Below, piece after piece: positions 2,691 through 49,529 of a DNA stretch of 64,000 nucleotides. The stretch's first letter is position 1. Each line of letters starts with the position of its first letter. The stretch lies in sequence record NC_022968.1, one strand, 5' to 3'. Under the pieces are notes generated by a model. The model was not told the DNA's origin. It searched no databases and saw nothing but the letters and a program-made list of their open reading frames with translations. The position numbers and the translations under genes were made by a program. Source of the DNA: Escherichia phage 4MG.

Positions 2691-3285
2691 ACCGCTAAAT
2701 ATCGGTATTGATGTTGACCTGACTTTTGTCGATTCAGGGTCCCCTTGGATTCTATGGATGGAACAGGTGTATGGTGTGAGTGCTGACTACAAGCTTCCAC
2801 CACCAAACCCACAAGGGAAACTCTACTACAACGTTTCCAAGTATTTTCCACCTGCAAAGGTAAATCAGGTTCCACCATACGAGTTCTGGGAAGACCCATA
2901 CCTCTATGACAAACTGAAGCCTCTGCCTGGTGCAGTTGAAGCAGTAGCGGCTTGGGCCGAAGCTGGACACTTCAACCAGTTTGTGTCTTACTGTAAGAAA
3001 GGCCACTTCTCGTCTAAGGTGCGATTCCTGAAACGTGAAACGGAAGAGTTTTTCAGTATCGAGCCAGGCTCAGGCCACGGGTTCTATGCAACGAAAAACA
3101 AAGCTGGTATCAAACTCGATGTCATCATTGATGACCGCAACGAGTTCCTGAATCAGTTCGGTCCTGAAGTGATCAAGATTAAGTTCAAGACACCTTACGA
3201 TCAGTCCGAAGAACTTCGTGTCTCGATTGACCTTGAGACCGATAACTGGGACGACATCCGGAAGTTTGTTCTGGACATTGCATAA
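2683..3285 (+). CDS. HAD-superfamily phosphatase, probable 5'-(deoxy)nucleotidase
   Basis: N-terminal IGIDVDLTF = HAD motif I DxDxT; start trimmed to ATG with GGAG RBS, overlapping the kinase stop. Confidence 0.5.
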   Translation: MRKPLNIGIDVDLTFVDSGSPWILWMEQVYGVSADYKLPPPNPQGKLYYNVSKYFPPAKVNQVPPYEFWEDPYLYDKLKPLPGAVEAVAAWAEAGHFNQFVSYCKKGHFSSKVRFLKRETEEFFSIEPGSGHGFYATKNKAGIKLDVIIDDRNEFLNQFGPEVIKIKFKTPYDQSEELRVSIDLETDNWDDIRKFVLDIA

Positions 3286-3479
3286 TGAAGAGATGCCCCA
3301 CAGGAGACTTCGTTGTCCACTATGGGGATTGGGTGGAGGTTTTCACCGAGGACGGAACCTTCCTCATATCCTTCAAAGCAACAAGCGACATGTGTCAGGA
3401 CATCCTGACACGTTATCTGGTGTTTAAAGCAGGAATGAACCCTGAGACACCATATCGAATCAAAAGGAGAGGCAAATGA
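3285..3479 (+). CDS. hypothetical protein
   Basis: ORF with TAATG stop/start overlap. Confidence 0.45.
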   Translation: MKRCPTGDFVVHYGDWVEVFTEDGTFLISFKATSDMCQDILTRYLVFKAGMNPETPYRIKRRGK

Positions 3480-10875: not shown

Positions 10876-11676
10876 ATGGGAAGAAGCAAAGAGGCTCGTG
10901 CAACAAAACTGAGCGCCCGTCAACAGCAACGTGCTGAACGTCAGGCCGCTAGTCAGGCAAAGCACCACCCGAAATTCGATGAGGAACGAAAAAGCGCACC
11001 ACCGCTAGTTGCTCTGAATGAAAAGCAGCAGGATTACCTTCACAAGTTGCAGACATGCAACATTATCATCGCGAAGGGGATCTTCGGAACAGGTAAAACC
11101 TACCTTGCATCCGCTCATGCTGCCGACTTGCTGCGTAGAAACGAACTCGACAAGATCATTGTCGCTCGTCCATACGTGCAGACGGGTAAAACCTCCGGCT
11201 TCAAACCGGGTACTTCACTGGAAAAGCTGTTCCCTTACGTCCGAAATATGCTGGATACCATCCGTAAGCGTATGGGTGATGGGGCTTACTACAATGCCCT
11301 GAAGGACGGCTTGAATGGGCGTATCGAAGTTCAGGAACTGGAAAGCATCCGTGGTCGTTCATTCGACGAAAAGAGCTTCCTGCTGATCGACGAAGCGCAG
11401 CAGAGCACCCCGGAAGAAATGCTGAGTATCATCACTCGTATTTCTGATAACTGTACGCTCGTAGTCATGGGTGATGCAAGTCAGAAAGATATTCATGGTC
11501 AGTCAGGCCTTGAATGGTTGATCGAGTTCACTCAGCGTCACAATCTTGCAGGCGTGGGATCTGTTTCCTTTGATGACCCGAATGAGGATATCGTTCGTGG
11601 TGGTATGGTTCGCGACATCGCTCTTGGCCTCATGGCTGACCGCGAAGAGAAGCGCTATACCCCGATGGCTTCTTAA
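10876..11676 (+). CDS. phoH: PhoH-like ATPase
   Basis: Walker A GIFGTGKTYLA, Walker B LLIDEAQ, typical PhoH size. Confidence 0.8.
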   Translation: MGRSKEARATKLSARQQQRAERQAASQAKHHPKFDEERKSAPPLVALNEKQQDYLHKLQTCNIIIAKGIFGTGKTYLASAHAADLLRRNELDKIIVARPYVQTGKTSGFKPGTSLEKLFPYVRNMLDTIRKRMGDGAYYNALKDGLNGRIEVQELESIRGRSFDEKSFLLIDEAQQSTPEEMLSIITRISDNCTLVVMGDASQKDIHGQSGLEWLIEFTQRHNLAGVGSVSFDDPNEDIVRGGMVRDIALGLMADREEKRYTPMAS

Positions 11677-32811: not shown

Positions 32812-33099
32812 ATGGCTTTCCACAAGGTTGTAAAAGCGCCTGCGAAACGGGCGCATATAAAGAATTACCCACACAAGAAGTCTGAAGCGAGAGACCGAAG
32901 AGTGAAGTGGTTATGGGACTATACAAAATCACTTCTTGGGGTTATCCTCGTAAACAGCGGCTATCATAAGTTTCACTTCTACGAACAATGGAGTGCTGTG
33001 AAAAAAGAGCTTAAAGAACTCGATGCTTACGATGAGCGAAACACCTGGCTCATTATCTCAGATGTTAAGTGGGAGCACAACAGATTTTATCGGTGGTGA
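32812..33099 (+). CDS. hypothetical protein
   Basis: RBS TAAGGAGAACAC; last gene before the non-coding region. Confidence 0.5.
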   Translation: MAFHKVVKAPAKRAHIKNYPHKKSEARDRRVKWLWDYTKSLLGVILVNSGYHKFHFYEQWSAVKKELKELDAYDERNTWLIISDVKWEHNRFYRW

Positions 33100-33112
33100 C
33101 CACACAAAAGGG

Positions 33113-33141
33113 TTGACGTAAACTGTCAGCCCTGTTATAGT
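33113..33141 (+). promoter_or_regulatory. sigma70-type promoter with no ORF downstream
   Basis: TTGACG - 17 nt - TATAGT directly after the last plus-strand gene; no RBS or ORF follows. Confidence 0.55.
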
Positions 33142-34805
33142 CATTATACGCCACATCTCCTGAAGCGGGAGGATACAATCACCAGACCTGCGTGAAAGGT
33201 TGTACACCCTGTTAACATTCTGTCATGTCGATAAAACACCATTTCATAAACATATACCCCACAACATGTCGATGCTATAAACATGTCTGAAGTGACCCAG
33301 CAAATTAGCCGGGGACTAATCGCCTTGCGATATACCCACCCCTCCCCCGCCCGGAGGGAAACGTAAACAGGCCCCTCTCTTTGTGTTTTCTGGCACGAAA
33401 ATATCCTGAAGAGGCAGGGCCTCGAAGACAGGTGTTTCTGGGCGCAATCTCTATGTCTGATGTGTTAGACGGACAATCACAGCCCCTCCGGGTTGTCAAG
33501 GATCTTTACAAAATATCTGAGAGGTCTGACCACGAGACCCTATCGAGTTTTTGGCACGATGATTGCATGATGATTACGTGGCGCAACTAATGATTACAAG
33601 TGCAACTATTAGCAATGTGACAGTTTACACCTGTTACAGCACGATTTGCTCTTGACTTGCTTATATTTGTGTGAATGAGCCTATTTAACATAATACACGT
33701 TATGCGAACCACAGATCACCGGGAGACAGGCCATATAGTCACATATGTTATCATTGCATCAGTGAACCATACCACAAGGCAACCAATAGCCTGCTACATG
33801 TTACCACCACGACAGTTTCACGCTGTTATTATTCATTTTGTGGGGTGTTTTGTCGATGAGAATACAAATGATAATCATTCTGAATACGATTTCGATTTCA
33901 GTTTCGAAATGAAAACCATTCTCAAATGGAAAATATTTTGTAAATCTGCCATAAAAAGCTTGACACAGAGGGAAAAATGTGTTTAGCATTTAAGCCTATC
34001 TTGAGCATCCAACCGCAATGATAATCATTAACGTTAAGCCTTGCTACGCCTGGCTTTAATAGACTTTTCCTATCAATAAAAAGCTTGACAGTTTACACCT
34101 TTTCATGCTCAAGAAAACCGCTTTTCATCGGGCATCTAGCCCGGTTTACAACATGATTAATCATGATTTGTCAATCATTAAACATGATTAAACCGCTTTT
34201 GATCTTCATAACCTGGCGACACAATAACACGAGGGCGATCATGCGATAGCGTGATCGGTGTTATCGTGGCGAGGTTATAAAATACTTCAACTATGCAATA
34301 GTTGCATTATGAATTATTCATTGTTCTAGTCATCTTGTCTGTTAACGCTTAGGCGCTAACGAGCCACGATAACGCGAACGAAAACGATATTTATTATCGT
34401 TTGAGTTACCCTCGTGTTATTGTGTCGCTCGCTCCGCTCGCGCCACTCACCCCGATAACGCGAACGATATTTTTATTTGACAAAAGATGATTACTATGCT
34501 CAAAAAAGACAGTTCACACAAAGGGTTAGATGAGAAAAGTTATCATTTCAGGGCTTTTGCTTCGTATTCACTCAATTTGCATAAAAACACGGTGTTTATT
34601 CACTTGATAACCTGCGTTATCATTTTTGGGGTGTGAGTGAGTCAAAGGCGGGTAATGATACACGATTAAACGCAATATAACGCGTTTTGAGAGGGTTTAT
34701 CTGTTAGGCTTGCCGTTGTATGGCTTCAAAGAGATCTCTTTAAATTCACTTTTTTGCATAAAGACGGGTAAAGATTTAGTGTTTTGTTTGGGGTGTTGGT
34801 ATGAT

Positions 34806-34834
34806 ATGCAAAAAGCCGGGGATTATCCCGGCCT
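34806..34834 (-). terminator. rho-independent terminator (minus strand)
   Basis: Minus-strand hairpin GGCCGGGATAATCCCCGGC followed by TTTTTGCATAT, just after the stop of gene 34853-35062. Confidence 0.7.
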
Positions 34835-34852
34835 TACTTGGTGTGACTTTGA

Positions 34853-35062
34853 TCAGATAAACATTGCAGCATAATGATCGTAAAGGTCTTGCGCTTGTCT
34901 GGCAGGCCAGCGGCTTTCATCCACCGGGACACGTAGATCAATCGGGCGGCGATCTTTCAATCCGTTAACATGAAAAAATGTTTCACCTGTAAGCTGTACG
35001 ATCTCCAGTTTAACGAGGTTGTCAGAATCTTTTACGGTCTGCTGAATGAGAATAGTAGTCAT
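34853..35062 (-). CDS. hypothetical protein
   Basis: Trimmed ORF; minus-strand GTGGAG RBS. Confidence 0.45.
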   Translation of the reverse strand: MTTILIQQTVKDSDNLVKLEIVQLTGETFFHVNGLKDRRPIDLRVPVDESRWPARQAQDLYDHYAAMFI

Positions 35063-35068
35063 TTGCAA

Positions 35069-35434
35069 TTACTCCACAATTGTGATGGTTTGACCTGGTA
35101 ACAGGAAATTCCCGGTTTTATCGTCAAAAATTCCGGTTGCACTTGTTACGGTGACCGTTTCGCCTGATGTCACGATCATAACTTGGGATTCAGTTGGATA
35201 ATCAAAGGTGTAAAGGCGAGGTGTTAACGGCTTGCCGCTTTCTTTCGAATAGTTAACATCATAATCATAAACGGCTTGACATTTGATCGCTACCGTTTCG
35301 GCCTTGTAATAGTGGTTATCATAGCCATAGCCACGCATAAACGGCGCGGATATTTCCAGGACTTCACACAGCGAACCACGAAACAACATATCGCCTTTTT
35401 TCAGGTCTAAAAGGTTGATTTTCTTAAGATCCAT
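35069..35434 (-). CDS. hypothetical protein
   Basis: Leader hairpin plus AGAGGTAAACAAAATG. Confidence 0.5.
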   Translation of the reverse strand: MDLKKINLLDLKKGDMLFRGSLCEVLEISAPFMRGYGYDNHYYKAETVAIKCQAVYDYDVNYSKESGKPLTPRLYTFDYPTESQVMIVTSGETVTVTSATGIFDDKTGNFLLPGQTITIVE

Positions 35435-35457
35435 TTTGTTTACCTCTCAAAGTGTAA

Positions 35458-35474
35458 CGGGGCGACTAGCGCCC
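35458..35474. repeat. GC-rich leader hairpin (family member)
   Basis: GGGGCG-ACTAG-CGCCCC between two minus-strand genes, about 20 nt upstream of the start codon. Confidence 0.6.
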
Positions 35475-35484
35475 CCGATGATTA

Positions 35485-35862
35485 TTACTGATAAGCGGGA
35501 TCGTTGGTGATGTCGATCCAATGAGTTAAATCAATTTTGCCTTTTTCTTTCATTTTCTCGATCAGGCGGTCGGCTAATGTCTCAGAACGAACATAAACAT
35601 TCTCGCTAAAATCCTGGCCTGTTTCATCGTCGATCATTTCGCAATATTCGATTTTACCGATGAAAGCATGATTCAAGGCGTAAGTTTTACCAGTAAACCA
35701 GTTGTGTAAATGAATCTCGCATTTATAATCATCGCTACGGCCTTCAGTAGTCATAACGTCGATCAGATCACCTTTGAAAACTGAAAGATTCCACATGAGA
35801 TCTTTAGTTTTACCGCCAAAATCTTTAGTTTCTACGGTTGAAGCCAGGTTAATGATCGACAT
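35485..35862 (-). CDS. hypothetical protein
   Basis: First gene of a minus-strand unit; RBS AGAGGTAAATCA. Confidence 0.5.
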   Translation of the reverse strand: MSIINLASTVETKDFGGKTKDLMWNLSVFKGDLIDVMTTEGRSDDYKCEIHLHNWFTGKTYALNHAFIGKIEYCEMIDDETGQDFSENVYVRSETLADRLIEKMKEKGKIDLTHWIDITNDPAYQ

Positions 35863-35899
35863 TTGATTTACCTCTTAGTCTGTTTTGTTTGATTTCGTT

Positions 35900-35945
35900 T
35901 GTTTGCCCTACGAGATAAATATTACTATAGGGGGATCAGCACGTC
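35900..35945 (-). promoter_or_regulatory. sigma70-type promoter (minus strand), conserved family
   Basis: Minus-strand TTGACG - 17 nt - TAATAT followed by conserved CGTAGGGC. Confidence 0.5.
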
Positions 35946-36358
35946 AATAGCTCTTTACATAACTTTACACTATTCACTGTTTGCATCTTTATGCATCGCT
36001 ATGCAATTCATTTCATGGTGAAATTACTTTTTAGGCGTTTTTCCGTGTCAAGCTATTTTTATATAGCCTTTAAACGTCCTGTAACGCGTTTTAAGCGGTT
36101 TTGCGTCCAGGCTGTACCCTAGCCCGTTTTAACGGAGATCTCCCCATATTCACTATTTTGCATAGGATTTGAGGGTGTAGTGATAATCATTCTCATCGCC
36201 CAGCGATTAGCCCCCGGCTAACTATCTAAATGATAGTGATTCTCATTACCGGAATAACAGGCACCTCCGGTGGCTTTCCTCCGGTGTCCATCGTTGCCGC
36301 TTCCACAAAAGAATAACAAAAACCGGGACAGAAAACAAGCCCCGGAATTGTAAAGATT

Positions 36359-36676
36359 TTAGCGGATATTTATCCCGGCGGGTAGCCAGTAGCCAGAATA
36401 ATGATCATGAGGTGTGAACCCGTGGGACGGCTTTATATATGTAACTGATAACCATTCTCGATCATCCAGATAAAGCGCCTCATCTATTGCCACCACAAAA
36501 CACAATTCACCTTCACGATCTTTAACGGTTGCGATAGCGTGTTTTTCTATCGCCTTTTCAAGTGCAGCCAGGCCGCGCCGGAATTGTTCCGGGCGTGTGC
36601 GGTAACCTAAGTTATCCTCAGGGCAAAGTCTGTTTAAGGTAGCCCAGCTAACCGCAATCATTTTTTGAAGTGTCAT
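36359..36676 (-). CDS. hypothetical protein
   Basis: Trimmed to ATG with minus-strand AAGAGG RBS. Confidence 0.45.
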   Translation of the reverse strand: MTLQKMIAVSWATLNRLCPEDNLGYRTRPEQFRRGLAALEKAIEKHAIATVKDREGELCFVVAIDEALYLDDREWLSVTYIKPSHGFTPHDHYSGYWLPAGINIR

Positions 36677-36686
36677 TGTCTGCCTC

Positions 36687-37163
36687 TTATCTGTAACGGT
36701 GCATTGATTCACGATAGACCGATCCGCCGTCGAACTTCTCCGCACTTCTCAGGGCGTCCACTAGCTCGCACATTTTGCGGAGTACATACGAACAATGATC
36801 ATTAAAGTCAATGGCTTTTTTAATCATTTCCTCTTTACTCTCCCCATCAATAAAGACAAGTTGATCAAGGGCGTTATAGTGATCAAGCCAGGCGCGGATC
36901 GCGTCATGCTCCAGGGGGCGATCTGTCTGGCTAAAACTTGACAGGCCGAAAGATTCAAAAGTGTTTACATTGTCCATTAATTCATCATAAGCGGTTTCCC
37001 AGCTACTAGCCCAGAACTCAACCGCATCAGATTGAAAATCAGGATCATCAGGGTCAATAAAACAGATTGAAAAAAGTTGCAGGCCTTCACGCTTTGTTAA
37101 GGTATAGCGAGCACTATCAAGGGCGCGTGTTTTGGTGTCTTCTGGGGTGATTTCATATTTCAT
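36687..37163 (-). CDS. hypothetical protein (start uncertain)
   Basis: Track ORF trimmed to internal ATG. Confidence 0.4.
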   Translation of the reverse strand: MKYEITPEDTKTRALDSARYTLTKREGLQLFSICFIDPDDPDFQSDAVEFWASSWETAYDELMDNVNTFESFGLSSFSQTDRPLEHDAIRAWLDHYNALDQLVFIDGESKEEMIKKAIDFNDHCSYVLRKMCELVDALRSAEKFDGGSVYRESMHRYR

Positions 37164-37305
37164 TCTTTGATACCTATAAACGGAAAATGTGAGAGATCTG
37201 CGGGGCGTAAGTGTTGACTTTGAACCCATTCACCAGACATCAGAGCCAGGACACGGGAACCGCGCCAGCGGTAGCGATTCCCATTCAAAAGGTTAACGTA
37301 AATGA

Positions 37306-37533
37306 TCATGCGCCGTAAAGACCATCACTATTAAAATCATCCTCAAAAGAGGCCAAGTATTCGAAAAATTCAAACTCCATCGCGACAACATGTTTAACCA
37401 AATCAGCATTTTTGTATTCAGCCGGGGACAGGCGGATCGGCGCGTCACTATATAGATCCGTAAGTTCGATGTATTCCCCGACCTTTTGAGCGGTTACCGT
37501 GTTTTTCTTGTTGTCGAAAATTACTTGTTTCAT
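37306..37533 (-). CDS. hypothetical protein
   Basis: ORF with ATGA overlap to upstream gene. Confidence 0.45.
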   Translation of the reverse strand: MKQVIFDNKKNTVTAQKVGEYIELTDLYSDAPIRLSPAEYKNADLVKHVVAMEFEFFEYLASFEDDFNSDGLYGA

Positions 37534-37754
37534 GATATACGCTCAATAATAATGATTGCTTGCGGGATAGAATCAGGAGTAACGATCAGGGCTTTTGATT
37601 GACGAATTTTAAAGCCTAGTTTCGCTTTGCACACCGTGGCGGTCATTTTCCGCATTTCAGGATCTACGTTTGCACCTTCACAGAACCATACAGCCTTTTC
37701 ACCTGCGATAAGGTTGCGTAAAAATTCAGTTTGCCCGGTTTGATTCTTTAACAT
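37530..37754 (-). CDS. hypothetical protein
   Basis: Leader hairpin plus GAAAGGTAAACGAAATG. Confidence 0.5.
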   Translation of the reverse strand: MLKNQTGQTEFLRNLIAGEKAVWFCEGANVDPEMRKMTATVCKAKLGFKIRQSKALIVTPDSIPQAIIIIERIS

Positions 37755-37775
37755 TTCGTTTACCTTTCAAAGTAT

Positions 37776-37794
37776 GCCGGGGACGTTCCCCGGC
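37776..37794. repeat. GC-rich leader hairpin (family member)
   Basis: GCCGGGGA-CGT-TCCCCGGC, 8-bp stem and 3-nt loop. Confidence 0.65.
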
Positions 37795-37801
37795 TTGCTG
37801 A

Positions 37802-38062
37802 TTAGATTGATTTTTCGATATCGGCTAAAATCTCTTTTGCAAGAGTATAGTTTACATTCAGATCCCGCGCTATGTCTTCGGCTAACAGTTTACGACCTAC
37901 GTTACCGAAACTTAACATTCTTTTAACTTCTGGTAACCCTTTGCCCCAATAGTTATAGCAGGAATCACCGATATATTTTGAGTAAAACGCGTTATCGTTG
38001 CGAACTCCACCTAAAACAGCGACATTAACAGAGATAACGTGTTTAAAATTGTGCTTTTCCAT
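37802..38062 (-). CDS. hypothetical protein
   Basis: Leader hairpin plus AAAAGGTAAACAAAATG. Confidence 0.5.
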   Translation of the reverse strand: MEKHNFKHVISVNVAVLGGVRNDNAFYSKYIGDSCYNYWGKGLPEVKRMLSFGNVGRKLLAEDIARDLNVNYTLAKEILADIEKSI

Positions 38063-38082
38063 TTTGTTTACCTTTTCGGCTT

Positions 38083-38103
38083 GCCGGGGAGGTATTCCCC
38101 GGC
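38083..38103. repeat. GC-rich leader hairpin (family member)
   Basis: GCCGGGGA-GGTAT-TCCCCGGC. Confidence 0.65.
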
Positions 38104-38147
38104 CTCAAAAAGATATTAACCGATCCGCGCCTTGCTTGCAAGCGTTT

Positions 38148-38480
38148 TTATTCATCTTCCCCGTAATCATCGCCAATGTTGAAAATGTCCAGCATATCAC
38201 CAGCAGCGATCCACAGCAGGTACATTTCCAGGGTATGGCGATCCATATTATCGATCCCGTCTACCCCTTCACGCTCGATCCCGGTTTCAGCCAGATAATC
38301 CCGGATCATTTGATCGGTGTAGGCGCTAAACTGTAAACCGTCCCGGAAATAGGGCAGGGCTTCAACGGTGGAGGCTTCACAATCCCCAGAGTGGGCGATC
38401 TCTTCTACCTGGTCACGGTCACGGAAAATCAGACACAACCGACCACAGGAGGAAGACCAATAAACGTTTTTCTTTTTCAT
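38148..38480 (-). CDS. hypothetical acidic protein
   Basis: Trimmed start; acidic C-terminus DDYGEDE. Confidence 0.45.
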   Translation of the reverse strand: MKKKNVYWSSSCGRLCLIFRDRDQVEEIAHSGDCEASTVEALPYFRDGLQFSAYTDQMIRDYLAETGIEREGVDGIDNMDRHTLEMYLLWIAAGDMLDIFNIGDDYGEDE

Positions 38481-38482
38481 GA

Positions 38483-38716
38483 TTAAGCCCACACTTTAGC
38501 ATAAGAGAAGAGATCGGAAATATAGCCACGATACCCGCCGCGCTTGTGATTGCTTGCGTTATTCTTCCAGGCAACAACCACAGATCCCGAACGTTTTACA
38601 CCACAGAAGATCCCGCGATCCCCACCTTTTCCGGCTTCTACCCATTGCCCCGGCTGCAATTTTGCAACGTTGGTTTGAGCGTCCCAGATATCCACGGTTT
38701 TAGTGTATCGTGCCAT
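38483..38716 (-). CDS. hypothetical protein
   Basis: Leader hairpin plus GAAAGGTAAATATTATG. Confidence 0.5.
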   Translation of the reverse strand: MARYTKTVDIWDAQTNVAKLQPGQWVEAGKGGDRGIFCGVKRSGSVVVAWKNNASNHKRGGYRGYISDLFSYAKVWA

Positions 38717-38737
38717 AATATTTACCTTTCATTATGA

Positions 38738-38756
38738 CCGGGGACAATCCCCGGCC
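38738..38756. repeat. GC-rich leader hairpin (family member)
   Basis: CCGGGGA-CAA-TCCCCGG. Confidence 0.65.
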
Positions 38757-38768
38757 TGTTAGAATACT

Positions 38769-39110
38769 TTAGCCGATCTGGTTTTCAGAGTCAACCGGGA
38801 AAACATCATTTACAATCTCAACAACTACCGCGAAAACATCCAGAGCATCACGGATCGGCAGGCTATCCGCTTGCTTTACATAGCCTTTCACGCTTTCAAG
38901 CTGATAAGAGATGTAATGAGCTTTGCAGGGTTTTTGTGTGCCGTGATCAATGCTGTTTTCCGTGCGGATCATGATATCCAGGCGATCCCCGTTCACAGCG
39001 TCATTGATATGACAAAAACGCAATAACGTTTTATCATCGAAACGACGAAAATCACATTTTGCTTTGTCAGTAACGCCAGCCAGGAAGAAAAATTTATTTG
39101 CCAGTTCCAT
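38769..39110 (-). CDS. hypothetical protein
   Basis: ORF. Confidence 0.45.
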   Translation of the reverse strand: MELANKFFFLAGVTDKAKCDFRRFDDKTLLRFCHINDAVNGDRLDIMIRTENSIDHGTQKPCKAHYISYQLESVKGYVKQADSLPIRDALDVFAVVVEIVNDVFPVDSENQIG

Positions 39111-39126
39111 TTTTAAAACCTCGTTT

Positions 39127-39243
39127 TAGAATAAAGATAATAACAGCAGGAAGATCACGAAAGACCACACCAGACGACACATGATCCGCGCCTCAGTGTA
39201 AACCGGGTTTTCGGTAGTGTATTCTACTTTGTAACCTTTCATG
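39127..39243 (-). CDS. small membrane protein (38 aa)
   Basis: Below track cutoff; leader hairpin plus GGTGAGGTGAATCATG. Confidence 0.3.
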
Positions 39244-39261
39244 ATTCACCTCACCAGGTGA

Positions 39262-39280
39262 CCGGGAACCGCTCCCGGCC
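39262..39280. repeat. GC-rich leader hairpin (family member)
   Basis: CCGGGA-ACCGC-TCCCGG. Confidence 0.6.
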
Positions 39281-39321
39281 TTGTCTGATAATTATTGATC
39301 AACCGTTCCCCGTTGTCAAAT

Positions 39322-39618
39322 TTATTTTTTGGCCTCTTGTGTGGCGTACATTTCAACCAAACTTTGAGCGCTCAAATTATCCACAAAAAAGGATGTCACG
39401 GCAACCGCCGGATCACCTTCCACGGCTTCACCTTCCGGCATTGGTTCGACTTCCGGCGATGGTATGCAAGCCGGATTAATCCAGCGGCGATCCTCGGAAT
39501 AGCCACGCGCTACAATGTAGCAGGTTAGCGGATCGTCGTATGATTCAACAATAAAATCATCACACTGTTTAAGCGCAAGGGCGCTATAAAAACACATTCC
39601 GGCGAATACTTCAAACAT
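39322..39618 (-). CDS. hypothetical protein
   Basis: ORF. Confidence 0.45.
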   Translation of the reverse strand: MFEVFAGMCFYSALALKQCDDFIVESYDDPLTCYIVARGYSEDRRWINPACIPSPEVEPMPEGEAVEGDPAVAVTSFFVDNLSAQSLVEMYATQEAKK

Positions 39619-39627
39619 GATCTTTAC

Positions 39628-39846
39628 CTACTTTTTGAGGGTGAGGATAGGGCGTTTATCGCCTTCTTTAACTCCGGGATCTAGCTCATCACAGATCCCG
39701 ATCTGCTCGCCTTTGCCTAACGTGTATTCGTTTTCGTACACGTTGCAAGCCTGCTCGGTGGGGAATGTTTTTTTAACATCCCAGCTACATTCTAACTTCA
39801 TTGAAGTTAGCGAGATATGGCAGGCCATAACGATAAACCCGAACAT
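39628..39846 (-). CDS. hypothetical protein
   Basis: ORF. Confidence 0.45.
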   Translation of the reverse strand: MFGFIVMACHISLTSMKLECSWDVKKTFPTEQACNVYENEYTLGKGEQIGICDELDPGVKEGDKRPILTLKK

Positions 39847-40082
39847 TACGCCACCTCTTCAAAAGTCGATTCCCAGGCCCCGTGATAATCAACGCCGTTT
39901 TCGGTGTCCTCATCACAAGAGTGGATATTATCAAAAAGTTCGCCGGATGTATAGCCCTCATTCAACATTTCGAAAATTCTTTCTTGTGCTGATTCTTCTA
40001 AAAAATCCGCGTGGCGGTCTAATACTTCACCGTTATTATCTGACTTTTTCCACCAATAAGAGATTTTGATTTCGCGTTTCAT
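39846..40082 (-). CDS. hypothetical acidic protein
   Basis: Trimmed to ATG (MKREIKISYWW...). Confidence 0.45.
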   Translation of the reverse strand: MKREIKISYWWKKSDNNGEVLDRHADFLEESAQERIFEMLNEGYTSGELFDNIHSCDEDTENGVDYHGAWESTFEEVA

Positions 40083-40189
40083 TTTTCGGACTCCAGAATG
40101 ATATGGATAGCGACAACAGAGCAAGCCGCTACGATGAAAGATACCAGCGCCGCCACACACCAAAGGTTTGTATAATCTAACATTTTCAT
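40079..40189 (-). CDS. small membrane protein (36 aa)
   Basis: Below track cutoff; minus-strand AGAGAGG RBS; ATGA overlap. Confidence 0.3.
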   Translation of the reverse strand: MKMLDYTNLWCVAALVSFIVAACSVVAIHIILESEK

Positions 40190-40259
40190 TACCTCTCTTT
40201 AAGTGGTGGCATTATTGCCGCCTATGAATAAAGATACCATAAGCGGCGCAGATTGCAAG

Positions 40260-40550
40260 TTATTTTTTGATCTGGTTTGTGCGGTTATAGTCCTCATACC
40301 GTACACGGGACACGGTGACCGATTGAGGGAGGAGGCAACGCACACGATCCGCGCGGTTGTCATATTTCTGGATATGTGCCGGGGTATTGTTGCGGGTAAA
40401 CTTCACGCGTAAACGTAATTTTGTTGGATCACGGTCATCGATCCCGGTGACCACACCGAACCCAATTTGACCATAATTATGATAAACCATTTTGCCCAAG
40501 TATTTGTTTTCAAGAGCATTTTTAGTCAGAGCATTCATTACTTTACACAT
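40260..40550 (-). CDS. hypothetical protein
   Basis: First gene after promoter region; RBS AAAAGGTAAATATCATG. Confidence 0.5.
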   Translation of the reverse strand: MCKVMNALTKNALENKYLGKMVYHNYGQIGFGVVTGIDDRDPTKLRLRVKFTRNNTPAHIQKYDNRADRVRCLLPQSVTVSRVRYEDYNRTNQIKK

Positions 40551-40589
40551 GATATTTACCTTTTGGTTGTGTGGGCTTCACTATGTCGC

Positions 40590-40635
40590 CCTACGTGTTA
40601 AATATTAACAGATTCACGCCAGGACGCAAGAAAAT
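40590..40635 (-). promoter_or_regulatory. sigma70-type promoter (minus strand), conserved family
   Basis: Minus-strand TTGCGT - 16 nt - TAATAT followed by conserved CGTAGGGCGAC. Confidence 0.45.
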
Positions 40636-40839
40636 TATTAAATCTTTACAATATTCACTGTTTTGCATAAGTATTCAATGATATGCAAATAGTTTCACGT
40701 TGTTACTAAATTTAAGCCCTTTTGAGCGTGGCGCGGTTTCGTGATACCGCTTTAAAGCTCCTGTAAGCCTCTCTAAGCGCTTCAACGTCGAACCCTGGCA
40801 AGTGCATCACCTCGCGGAGAAGTCCCCAAATTCACTTTT

Positions 40840-40873
40840 TTGCATAGAAAAAAGGCCGGGGATCGTCCCGGCC
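40840..40873 (-). terminator. rho-independent terminator (minus strand)
   Basis: Minus-strand GGCCGGGACGATCCCCGGCC followed by TTTTTTCTATG, just after the stop of gene 40879-41082. Confidence 0.75.
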
Positions 40874-40878
40874 TCTTG

Positions 40879-41082
40879 TTAGTCAGTTTGTACGGCTTGC
40901 CACTGTAAAGCACGTTTGCGATCCGCCAACCGTTTATTGAGATTTGGATCATAACGGTCTGGCGTCCAGGTTTTGGCAACGCGTTCCGGCTTGTGTAATT
41001 TGTCGTTACGTTGGCGGCGCTCGTTTACTTCACCATAAGCCAGGCGATCACGCTTGCTTGTCATCTTCTCAATATTTCGCAT
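40879..41082 (-). CDS. hypothetical basic protein
   Basis: ORF ending at the terminator. Confidence 0.45.
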   Translation of the reverse strand: MRNIEKMTSKRDRLAYGEVNERRQRNDKLHKPERVAKTWTPDRYDPNLNKRLADRKRALQWQAVQTD

Positions 41083-41096
41083 TCTAAACCCTCGTT

Positions 41097-41444
41097 TTAT
41101 TTTCGTTTGTTGTATACATGTTCAATGATCCGGCCTTGCTGTTCTGCTAGCTCATTAGCTCGCCATTCTATGATCTCGGTTATCTGCTCTTTTGTGCCTT
41201 CTTTGTGATACGTGATAAACCCGCCACGCTTTTTCACTTCACACAATAGCCCGTTACCCTCAAGATCATTTAATGCCCCAGATCGCCGGGTGTGGTAGTG
41301 CTTACCGTGGAACCTATATTCAATATAATGATACACTTTCCCGATCCTGTATTCGTAGTAAATCCAGAGCACTCCCCGCCATAGCCTGGCGGGGATCTTC
41401 CAGTAAATAGCAGCAGCAGCTACCAAAAACAGGATTTTAAACAC
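41097..41444 (-). CDS. hypothetical protein with N-terminal membrane anchor
   Basis: Hydrophobic N-terminus. Confidence 0.45.
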   Translation of the reverse strand: MFKILFLVAAAAIYWKIPARLWRGVLWIYYEYRIGKVYHYIEYRFHGKHYHTRRSGALNDLEGNGLLCEVKKRGGFITYHKEGTKEQITEIIEWRANELAEQQGRIIEHVYNKRK

Positions 41445-41446
41445 TG

Positions 41447-42013
41447 TTAATAATCCTCTAACATTTCGCGCAGGGCTTCCAGTTCCTCACCTGTAAAGAT
41501 CTTGCGGAGTTCCTCGCCTGTTTTCTGGCAAGCAAGATAAATCTCTAAACCTTTGCGGCTATCCTCATCATAACCCATGTTAGCGCAAAAATCAGCATGA
41601 GTTTCTGATCCACAATCAGCATCAGCTAGCAGGCAGTAAAGCACGTTTGCGGCGCAAGGTGTCGCAACATATACACGGTAACCGAAAGACATTGCTTTAT
41701 TATTGTTGCGTTTGTAATCGTCGCGTGTCCAGTTTTTCTGATCCACTTGTGCAACTTTCGCGCCAACTTTCGCAAGCTCTCGCGCATCAGTCGGAGTTAC
41801 GCCACCGTTACGGCCTACACGGTGCCCGGTTCCCGTTTTAAATTCAGTGCGGTAAACGTTAGCGCCCTTTTCGAAACTCACAAAAAACAGATCCGCTTCC
41901 CACTTAGGATCATTGTTAACGCCGCCATATTGAGCATTAAAAGTAATGCCCTTTTCTTTCAGGAAGTTAGAAACGGCTACGTCTTGATCGTTGAAAGTGA
42001 TTTTGTTATTCAT
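41447..42013 (-). CDS. hypothetical protein
   Basis: 188 aa ORF. Confidence 0.5.
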   Translation of the reverse strand: MNNKITFNDQDVAVSNFLKEKGITFNAQYGGVNNDPKWEADLFFVSFEKGANVYRTEFKTGTGHRVGRNGGVTPTDARELAKVGAKVAQVDQKNWTRDDYKRNNNKAMSFGYRVYVATPCAANVLYCLLADADCGSETHADFCANMGYDEDSRKGLEIYLACQKTGEELRKIFTGEELEALREMLEDY

Positions 42014-45149: not shown

Positions 45150-45475
45150 TATCAGACAGAAGAGAAAACGCCACTCCACGGCGAAAAGGCGGGGCTAACG
45201 TACCGGGCGCGGGTGCCAGGTCGGAAGGTGGATCGCCGGTAGTTCGTCTGAATGACATTTGTAAAGATTTGTAAAGATGGTTGATCCTGGGGTTGGTTCT
45301 GCTATTATTATCACATAGCGGGAACATTGAAACCGGAGTACAAAACACCGGGGGTGCCTGTCATTCTGCAAATGATAATGATTATCATTCAACAAGCTAA
45401 ATGAGAATGCTTCTCATTCCGCATAAAAATTTATCTTGACATCGAGTGTGCTTGTGTGAGAAAATTATTGATCCC

Positions 45476-45681
45476 AAAAAATTTTTTCGCGTCTATAGAA
45501 AAAATACGTTTTTGAAACTGAAAAGTCGATCGAGAACCGGGCGCAAAAATTTTTTCGAGAGCGAGAAAAAATACGATCTCGATTTTGAAAAATCGATCGA
45601 GAACCCAATCTCTACCGAGAAAAATTTTTTGAGCAGTATAGAAAAAATACGATCTTGAAAACGAAAAAGTGATCGAGTACC
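45476..45681. repeat. three imperfect tandem direct repeats (~62 bp unit)
   Basis: Units at about 45476, 45545 and 45621 sharing AAAAATTTTTTCG...AGAAAAAATACG...TCGATCGAGAACC. Confidence 0.7.
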
Positions 45682-45949: not shown

Positions 45950-46774
45950 TCATTTCGGTTCCTTACCGAAAATATCTCTCCACATACAAATATCATAGCT
46001 CTTGTGGTGCGCCATCTCATACATCTGAATTTCTTCGTCTGTTGGATGCAAGATATCCATGAAAAGATGCTTTATATCTGAGGTGTTAAACGTTGAAGAA
46101 ACCCCGTCTATGGTGGTATGGATAGCCAGTTCACCATATGCCTTTGTCAGGTGGATACGGTCTTTACCATTCATGATGGTTACACGATCATCTTGCACTG
46201 CAATCCAACTATCCACACCGATAACCATATCACTTGGTGTGCTTGCATGGACCAAAAGCTCTATGACCGTGCTGGTTGGGATGATACTGTTCAGGTAATC
46301 CCTTTGCCACTCATTCCATCCACGCTCCTGGAGGCATCTACGCAATACAAAATCGCATCTAAGCTCGTTAGTGGCATCTCCAACGATATAGTTAAACTCA
46401 TCCGAGATCTCGGCTCTGTCCATTTTGTTGTCGAGGGATAAAATATCTTTTGCCATGTTATCAGCACGGCGAGCAACATTAATCAAGCTCCACGTCAAGG
46501 CCTCTATTTGACGTTCAAGCGCCTCAACGTAGGCTTGGTAATCAGCAATCTCAGAACTCTTTGCATAGGACTTAAGTTCTTCAAGCTCCGACGCGACCTT
46601 GCCCTTCTGCTTATCAAAGTCAGTTTCATCATCTGGATCACTTGAAAACTCAAGATATGATAGCTCATGCTCTGTGCTTTCATAGATCTTTTTCAGGTCT
46701 GTCTCGATGTCTGGGACATCAAACTTCTTTTTGTGGTGTGGGACGATCTCTGTTGTGTGAAATACTGTAGTCAT
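45950..46774 (-). CDS. hypothetical protein
   Basis: 274 aa ORF. Confidence 0.5.
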   Translation of the reverse strand: MTTVFHTTEIVPHHKKKFDVPDIETDLKKIYESTEHELSYLEFSSDPDDETDFDKQKGKVASELEELKSYAKSSEIADYQAYVEALERQIEALTWSLINVARRADNMAKDILSLDNKMDRAEISDEFNYIVGDATNELRCDFVLRRCLQERGWNEWQRDYLNSIIPTSTVIELLVHASTPSDMVIGVDSWIAVQDDRVTIMNGKDRIHLTKAYGELAIHTTIDGVSSTFNTSDIKHLFMDILHPTDEEIQMYEMAHHKSYDICMWRDIFGKEPK

Positions 46775-46896
46775 CTAAAAGCTCCTGTAAGCTCTTCTGA
46801 GCGTTTCTAATCAAAGGCTGTACGTTCGCCTACCTTACATGCTAAAAACCCCGTAGAACTCGATTGGTGAGCTTTACGGGGCATTGTGGTGTCATT

Positions 46897-49232: not shown

Positions 49233-49529
49233 TTACTTCTTAATCAGTTCATCAAGAGGAATGTACAGACTGGTTTTGCCGGGTCTTTCTACCACTTCGA
49301 GGTAACCTAGTGCCTCTAAAGTTTTAAGAGACCTCTGTACACTTCGTGGGCTAACACTAGTTGCTTCCGCAATGGTGTTAACTGACTCTACAAACTCTGC
49401 TCCCTTGCTCTGGAAGAACTGCCACCTGAACTTAATATACAGGTAGACCCGGAGGTCTGTTGACGAGACCTCCGGATTTGACAGGATTCCATACGAGCAT
49501 AAAACACTGAAAGACTTATCTATTCTCAT
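49233..49529 (-). CDS. helix-turn-helix DNA-binding protein
   Basis: IAEATSVSPRSVQRSLKTLEALGYL resembles a winged-helix HTH. Confidence 0.45.
   Translation of the reverse strand: MRIDKSFSVLCSYGILSNPEVSSTDLRVYLYIKFRWQFFQSKGAEFVESVNTIAEATSVSPRSVQRSLKTLEALGYLEVVERPGKTSLYIPLDELIKK

Follow-up and report, generated by a model that had tools for sequence, protein, structure and literature searches.

What function could be assigned to a short motif that recurs in the intergenic DNA of a large lytic phage? We analyzed a stretch of 64,000 nucleotides from Escherichia phage 4MG (NC_022968.1; the whole stretch is called the window below), in which ATTCACT and TTTGCAT, separated by a short spacer, are repeated among the minus-strand genes. 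A prediction made from the letters of the sequence had described the motif, preceded by a palindrome and lying between the terminator of one transcription unit and the promoter of the next, as a possible regulator binding site or processing signal specific to this phage. We found that the feature is real, non-random and conserved, and that it is larger and more structured than first described. The six motif copies form three pairs, 176–178 bp apart, and each pair lies at the ends of one copy (A, B or C, Table 1) of a paralogous intergenic module. The motif copies predicted originally are real, while the larger fixed-length module with motifs at both ends had been missed. Each module has two adjacent proximal sites, O1 and O2, the second 19–20 bp after the first, and one distal site, O3. 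The likeliest of the readings considered, which we put forward tentatively, is that the module is a cis-regulatory DNA element with putative protein-binding, operator-type dyads in fixed helical register.

The pattern ATTCACT-N2-4-TTTGCAT gave five exact matches in the window (34566, 34744, 36148, 40653 and 40830), all on the plus strand, and none in 100 dinucleotide shuffles. The sixth copy, ATTCACTGTTTGCAT at 35972, has a 1-nt spacer and lies on the same strand; it was found with a relaxed pattern that matched seven times against 0.97 expected, the remaining match at 11039 being unrelated. The positions given originally hold for all copies except this one, which had been placed at 35962. ATTCACT by itself is not enriched (11 against 11.5 expected), whereas TATGCAAA is (12 against 2.7), so the composite motif is the signal. 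Written as a dyad, TAT(T/G)CA-N6-TGCATA, the motif is an imperfect palindrome, and the imperfect 18-bp dyad WATKCA-N6-TGCAWW occurs six times against 0.29 expected, each time within one of the three modules. The C-type copies from phage PVP-SE1 and from Klebsiella phages of Mydovirus have TATGCA in place of the left half TATTCA, so that the left half is exactly the right half, TGCATA, in reverse complement; in the Klebsiella-phage orthologues the palindrome is perfect.

The distal site is embedded in a nearly invariant 29-bp block, GAGATCTC-N3-A(A/T)ATTCACT(T/A)TTTTGCATA. The palindrome expected ahead of the distal copies, GAGATCTC, is present in modules A and B, and in C it is degenerate (GAGAAGTC). 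Exact scans of a complete contig of 148,567 bp (IMG/VR IMGVR_UViG_2595698946_000001), to which the compared part of the window (33000–41928) is 100% identical, located the distal element in modules A, B and C only. The same 18-mer is found in unrelated metagenomic phages, where it looks like a chance match because none of these sequences has the flanking sequence of the module; some are gene starts (ATG CAA AAA AGT GAA...). An invertible element, or one resembling a miniature inverted-repeat transposable element, bounded by TATGCAA and TTGCATA was also considered and rejected: the copies all point the same way and lack target-site duplications, and a segment of only 147 bp is too small to be inverted.

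Alignment of the three regions produced one paralogous module of about 300 bp, the paralogues being about 65–67% identical; the core from O1 to O3 takes up about 200 bp of it. A profile hidden Markov model made from 23 module copies and searched with nhmmer against the 64-kb window recovered exactly three full-length copies. O2 of module A is reduced to a TATTCA half-site. On the minus strand, in the direction of transcription, a stop codon is followed by an intrinsic terminator, the distal motif, the conserved interior and the proximal motif. Beyond these, B and C have a sigma-70-like promoter and then the next gene, so that the predicted location between a terminator and the next promoter applies to B and C and not to A. 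Directly past O2 there is a small palindrome, the position of which is kept and the sequence of which differs in each paralogue.

The spacing of the sites is strict. The O1–O3 separation stays within the limits given above in 23 of 23 distinct copies, and the distance from the O2 half-site (the second TATGCA half-site) to O3 is 146–147 bp, again in all 23. Further full-length nhmmer matches are all 196–199 bp long. From the start of O2 to the start of O3 we counted 157 bp in B and C. At 10.5 bp per turn, 147 bp corresponds to 14.0 turns and 157 bp to 15.0 turns; since the spacings are close to 15 and 14 helical turns, O1, O2 and O3 would lie on one face of the helix. Length is free outside O1–O3, with 22, 23, 35 and 38 bp between the −35 element and O1 among the copies (counted by hand in the alignment).

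Table 1. Coordinates of the modules, their sites and associated features in the window.
Feature	Position	Strand	Remark
Module A core, O1 to O3	34565..34760	+	nhmmer full-length 34565-34763, E=1e-37; alignments
O1 of A, TATTCA-N7-TGCATA	34565..34583	+	
O2 half-site of A, TATTCA	34597..34602	+	
Small palindrome past O2 in A, GATAAC-ctgc-GTTATC	34606..34621		followed by plus-strand T-run; pair 97/111: GC 11, AU 8
Palindrome GAGATCTC ahead of O3 in A	34731..34738	not applicable	
O3 of A, AATTCACTTTTTTGCATA	34743..34760	+	
Intrinsic terminator of the unit upstream of A	34810..34832	-	
Sigma-70-like early promoter below B, TTGACG-N17-TAATAT then CGTAGGGC	35919..35947	-	
Module B core, O1 to O3	35971..36164	+	nhmmer 35971-36167, E=1e-46
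O1 of B, TATTCA-N5-TGCATC	35971..35987	+	
O2 of B, TATGCA-N6-TGCAAT	35990..36007	+	
Equivalent small palindrome in B, ATTTCA-tgg-TGAAAT	36010..36024		
Palindrome GAGATCTC ahead of O3 in B	36135..36142	not applicable	
O3 of B, TATTCACTATTTTGCATA	36147..36164	+	
Intrinsic terminator upstream of B	36318..36345	-	separated from O3 by about 155 bp of additional non-coding DNA, which has Fur-box-like sites
Sigma-70-like early promoter below C, TTGCGT-N16-TAATAT then CGTAGGGC	40602..40629	-	
Module C core, O1 to O3	40652..40846	+	nhmmer 40652-40849, E=1e-51
O1 of C, TATTCA-N6-TGCATA	40652..40669	+	
O2 of C, TATTCA-N6-TGCAAA	40672..40689	+	20 bp past O1
Equivalent small palindrome in C (imperfect), AGTTTCA-cgt-TGTTACT	40691..40707		
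Degenerate palindrome GAGAAGTC ahead of O3 in C	40817..40824	not applicable	
O3 of C, AATTCACTTTTTTGCATA	40829..40846	+	
Intrinsic terminator upstream of C	40847..40873	-	7 nt from O3
98-amino-acid winged-helix protein (HTH_36)	49233..49529	-	speculative candidate binder

The region matches GAP31-like phages (Vequintavirinae, genus Seunavirus) and is 89–92% identical to Cronobacter phage GAP31, Enterobacter phage EC152 and Escherichia phage LNA4. Module C was detected in 59 phage records of the genera Seunavirus, Mydovirus and Henunavirus, with Klebsiella, Salmonella, Cronobacter, Escherichia, Enterobacter, Proteus, Raoultella and Erwinia as hosts; it was not detected in the many rV5-like Vequintavirus genomes. 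The module is additionally present in several metagenomic contigs, so the proposed restriction to this phage does not stand, whereas conservation in related phages does. The motif is enriched over shuffled sequence and conserved in relatives, and therefore neither of the two outcomes that would have spoken against the original prediction, lack of enrichment and lack of conservation, was found.

In comparison with GAP31 the interiors of B and C are 94–97% identical, against 69–94% for the third codon positions of eight neighboring genes. In comparison with Mydovirus the values are 90–93% for the B interior and 76–79% for the C interior, against 50–71% for third codon positions (only genes with an alignment that covered 40% of the gene or more were used). 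Because interior identity exceeds that of neighboring third codon positions, the non-coding interior is, by this measure of sequence divergence, under purifying selection.

Conservation of non-coding DNA at this level could reflect an RNA, and the module was considered as a non-coding RNA gene in which the motif copies would be promoter, ends or pairing partners, the proximal UAUGCAA with the distal UUGCAUA. RIBOSUM-scored RNAalifold proposed a closing helix between O2 and O3 with internal hairpins, on which 15 pairs change on both sides and 87.6% of cells pair against 32–50% in slid controls, a figure biased upward because the structure came from the same alignment; the GU/AC count of 38 against 16 on this model is likewise biased by the derivation of the structure. 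Each paralogue has a palindrome of different sequence at the same position, followed by a plus-strand T-run, and bidirectional-looking terminators lie past O3 in A and C. However, standard RNAalifold gave only −0.33 kcal/mol for the module, and the structure conservation index across paralogues was 0.07–0.09. With the dyad motifs excluded, the consensus energy of the interior was 0 in the diverse set, and orthologue groups taken one by one gave z-scores of only −0.7 to −1.2; the RNA-structure signal comes entirely from the TATGCA/TGCATA dyads, the only robust "pairs". Mean z-scores of single-sequence folding were −0.7 (plus strand) and −1.4 (minus strand). No convincing promoter for a module transcript was found on either strand, and a strict length constraint would be unusual for an unstructured small RNA. 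An RNA gene is unlikely on these grounds. A structured RNA in particular was rejected: with the dyads left out, neither the hairpins drawn by eye nor the RIBOSUM model passed the conservation-index and column-shuffle tests. Rfam returned nothing at gathering thresholds and, at E<=10, merely chance-level matches of <=18 bits. The proposal of a processing signal finds no conserved RNA structure to rest on, and in A and C the distal copy is downstream of the minus-strand terminator and outside the expected mRNA.

No conserved open reading frame was found in the module: in the three minus-strand frames of 23 copies stops fall at varying places, with no conserved start or ribosome-binding site. Judged by these frames, the module is not coding. 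Two small minus-strand open reading frames (MQKSEF... and MHLPGF...) were rejected as not conserved and not preceded by a ribosome-binding site. A tRNA relic was rejected too. tRNAs are annotated over the homologous region in OY978796, and ARAGORN finds none there or in the window. In this record (OY978796.1, Klebsiella phage vB_Kpn_K45PH128C2) tRNA and coding-sequence coordinates are shifted against the sequence; the offset is indicated by ARAGORN finding no tRNA at any of its 20 annotated tRNA positions.

From the sites, their dyad character, conservation and fixed spacing, the purifying selection on the interior and the lack of a conserved RNA fold or open reading frame, all of which are directly supported, we infer protein binding, looping and a regulatory outcome. 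A dimeric regulator from phage or host, capable of higher oligomerization, would occupy the distal and proximal sites jointly, and this joint occupation would bend or loop the intervening DNA. Looping might then set the activity or the timing of early transcription at the three module junctions, and the loops of A and B would each contain a promoter-like element, TTGAC(A/T). The originally predicted regulator binding site is plausible in view of the imperfect dyads, the spaced arrays and the strictly conserved spacing, with the binding itself remaining putative.

Repression by looped operator pairs is known for gal OE/OI with GalR and HU, lac O1/O3 and ara O2/I1. The modules resemble these operators in the conserved spacing of dyad-type sites at near-integral helical turns (146–147 and 157 bp) and in sites that flank or precede promoters; the dyad is imperfect here and perfect in some orthologues, and its binding by one protein is putative. 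What sets the modules apart from gal, lac and ara is that their sites are asymmetric and all point the same way, that strong conservation extends to the DNA between the sites, and that a lytic phage has them as three paralogues; looping is only proposed.

Several observations weigh against the cis-regulatory reading. There is no recognizable promoter downstream of module A. A-tract phasing in the module is ambiguous, the strongest periodicity being 9 bp and not 10.5, and by eye no IHF-like site was seen in the interior. The site matched none of the host transcription-factor consensuses compared, and no binding protein was identified; CRP, IHF, Fis, DnaA, ArgR, TyrR, CytR, NsrR, SoxS, sigma-54 and MotA were all compared by eye, and none matches convincingly. 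O3 is invariant over about 29 bp including the spacer and flank, which, together with the 90–93% identity of the B interior, exceeds what a passive loop needs. The sites being all asymmetric and in one orientation, common descent instead of function could explain them. Phage LNA4 lives without most of module B, so that a single module is dispensable. The module may, moreover, give rise to an unstructured small RNA.

The motif itself was also considered as a promoter for a modified RNA polymerase, either a sigma-54-like −24/−12 promoter or a middle promoter resembling the T4 MotA box. AAATTCACT-N3-TTGCATA is similar to TGGCAC-N5-TTGCA and TTTGCATA to the MotA box TTTGCTTA, and the arrangement TGCATA-N12/13-TATGCA is constant. 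The likeness is superficial (TTCAC...TTGCAT against GGCAC...TTGCA; TTTGCATA against TTTGCTTA): the GG that defines sigma-54 promoters is missing, the spacing differs between copies, and a promoter makes no sense in the transcriptional context of the distal copies. Tested as sigma-54 sites, the copies have TT where the essential GG of the −24 element is expected, and the spacer between ATTCACT and TTTGCAT varies from N1 to N4. The distal C copy would fire directly into the terminator hairpin and antisense to the genes, the putative −10 lacks its final T, and the motif is missing from every other transcription unit in the window. The T4 late-transcription homologues gp33, gp45 and gp55 are reported absent from this subfamily (rV5 paper, PMC3606486), which also counts against a special promoter. 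We regard this possibility as very improbable.

The position of B and C relative to the recognizable promoters is in line with operator-type sites. In these two modules O1/O2 are located 22–23 bp upstream of the −35 element of a conserved minus-strand sigma-70 early promoter. The internal TTGAC(A/T) element of the A and B interiors belongs to a repeated promoter family, ATAAAAAGCTTGACA, two plus-strand copies of which (33951 and 34076) are directed toward module A. Elsewhere at 39–44 kb, minus-strand regions in which sigma-70-like promoters occur together with terminator-like hairpins contain no copy of the motif or module.

The modules also mark places at which related phages differ. A replacement in GAP31 affects the three genes between A and B (34841–35858), one breakpoint being terminator A and the other the start codon below promoter B. 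EC152 has further gene-sized replacements and lacks 36365–36685 (gene 36359–36745). In LNA4 a deletion of 35972–36831 removed most of module B and the following gene (compared stretch 3167–3438 of LNA4 against 35859–36831 of the window), and it arose by recombination between two similar promoter-upstream sequences, GTCAAT(A/G)GCT...CTTTAC. Since LNA4 has lost most of module B, this module appears dispensable.

Such exchange is typical of the promoter-early stem-loop (PeSL) cassettes of T4-like phages (Arbiol 2010, PMC2839356; Comeau 2014, PMC4122927), and the modules could be PeSL-like terminator/promoter cassettes that chiefly serve as recombination anchors for early-gene shuffling, with the motif as a conserved passenger. 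The likeness is substantial: an intergenic intrinsic terminator, the module and a strong sigma-70 early promoter follow each other on the minus strand among small early genes of unknown function, the promoters of B and C have AT-rich upstream DNA (none was found for A), gene cassettes differ between close relatives, and the GAP31 replacement and the LNA4 deletion are bounded at the cassette. PeSLs, however, are compact, with a stem-loop overlapping or adjoining the promoter, and number about 50 per genome in hyperplastic regions, whereas the window, from another phage subfamily, has three full copies in 64 kb. The gap between terminator and promoter here exceeds 220 bp (terminator to −35 about 225 bp in C and 370 bp in B) and is filled by a fixed-length conserved interior with dyads. 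The paralogues are old and, at about 65% identity, too diverged for efficient mutual recombination; the LNA4 junction is in promoter-upstream sequence and not in the motif, and other breakpoints are at ordinary gene boundaries. Recombination anchoring explains neither the 146–147 bp spacing nor interior conservation above third codon positions, and we consider it improbable as the main role of the modules.

One speculative candidate for binding the modules is the 98-amino-acid winged-helix protein of Table 1. It scores 35.6 bits against HTH_36 (cut-off 25), and the helix-turn-helix segment is its best-conserved part. It matches positions 12–114 of 337, the N-terminal part, of phrog_8102, 'replication initiation protein', and bears this name in some records; it is no more than a single domain, similar to the one with which lambda O binds DNA at its N terminus. 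The protein is present in 68 phage records of Seunavirus, Mydovirus and Henunavirus and not in rV5-like Vequintavirus, in parallel with the module (59 records).

The same protein prompts another reading, in which the modules would be origins of replication, or accessory elements of origins, and the dyads iterons for the lambda-O-like protein. Large myoviruses, T4 among them, have several origins. The HTH_36 protein of this phage matches the N-terminal part only of replication-initiation PHROG families and is related to O-like origin-binding domains, its phylogenetic distribution mirrors that of the module, and the adjacent 18–19 bp dyad repeats are like lambda iterons. The shared distribution, however, reflects clade membership only, and the protein is a DNA-binding domain alone, without the C-terminal part of lambda O. 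Unlike in lambda, the sites are not in or next to the initiator-like gene (none was found near it), there are 2+1 sites per module, and no long AT-rich unwinding element is evident by eye (GC 0.38–0.44). A distant homologue in Aeromonas phage PhAER-4 has no motif arrays alongside, and LNA4 tolerates the loss of module B. An origin function is therefore quite doubtful in our estimation.

A broader proposal, which we consider unlikely, is that the modules represent a previously unrecognized fixed-geometry nucleoprotein element of large lytic phages, in which about 200 bp would be looped or wrapped at TATGCA dyads by a phage or host protein. Early transcription could be switched or insulated by this element, or the element could be one of several replication origins to which the O-like winged-helix protein binds; it would be kept as three ancient paralogues in at least three genera.

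The control of early genes in rV5-, PVP-SE1- and GAP31-like phages is essentially uncharacterized, and such phages are common candidates for biocontrol and therapy. The published genome analyses of rV5 and CB7 go no further than sigma-70-like promoters, terminators and a possible late motif. The motif was not found in the literature searched, which did not extend to the PVP-SE1 genome paper, where a prior mention is possible. A non-coding module with operator-like dyads, with constraint above that of synonymous sites and with its length kept within 1 bp across genera hints at a new regulator or nucleoprotein architecture, and modules A, B and C provide three well-defined experimental targets. 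As a marker of exchange points of early-gene cassettes between relatives, the module also bears on phage adaptation to different hosts.

The minus-strand genes at about 34.85–45 kb are small, of early type and mostly without known function. Two early genes flanking the modules have homologues: 35485–35862 (minus strand) is homologous to T4 gp30.8 (PF06019, 1.9e-29), and 40879–41082 (minus strand) to T7 gp1.1 (PF08200, 2e-10). An 850-bp non-coding stretch at 33.99–34.85 kb is the place where the plus-strand and minus-strand gene blocks meet; its part between the converging blocks (33990–34560) contains a perfect 20-bp inverted repeat (34216–34235 and 34409–34428) and 29-bp direct repeats at 34364 and 34450.

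A partial, interior-only fragment of the module was detected by nhmmer at 46771–46837 and is present in GAP31 too. This fragment (CGCTCAGAAGAGCTTACAGGAGCTTTTAG-ATG, minus strand) is the leader and Shine-Dalgarno sequence of a gene for 274 amino acids (45950–46774); it sits after a terminator, and no sigma-70 promoter is visible there. Its sequence suggests that the module interior derived from a gene leader.

Exact GTAAA-N5-GTAAA tandem repeats are present just upstream of the −35 elements of two promoters (35954–35968, minus strand; 45261–45275, plus strand), where they resemble a CpxR box. The GTAAA repeat is the CTTTACA that precedes the proximal motif and is conserved in B-type orthologues; with one mismatch allowed the window has 8 matches against 4.5 expected, and enrichment is not clear. 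At 45470–45680, downstream of a TTGACA promoter, there are about three imperfect repeats of about 60 bp (aaaaattttttcg...gagaaaaaatacgatc...tcgatcgagaac) with an iteron-like look, which Tandem Repeats Finder did not call.

Fur-box-like 7-1-7 palindromes (TGATAATCATTCTCA, AATGATAATCATTATC, TGAGAATGCTTCTCA) were detected at 36181–36195, 36231–36250, 33869–33883, 34531–34545, 45368–45392 and 45402–45416, clustering in the non-coding DNA beside the modules and in the promoter region at 45.4 kb. The window contains nine 7-1-7 palindromes against 0.31 expected, and three matches to the 19-bp Fur consensus with <=3 mismatches against 0.02. Relative to GAP31 and EC152 it has about 50 extra bp past module B (36165–36250) that duplicate a Fur-like box, and the C-type modules of Mydovirus and PVP-SE1 have a related palindrome, TTGAGAATTGTTCTCA, in the interval from the −35 element to O1. 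The clusters of these boxes suggest that some phage promoters are under iron-responsive control.

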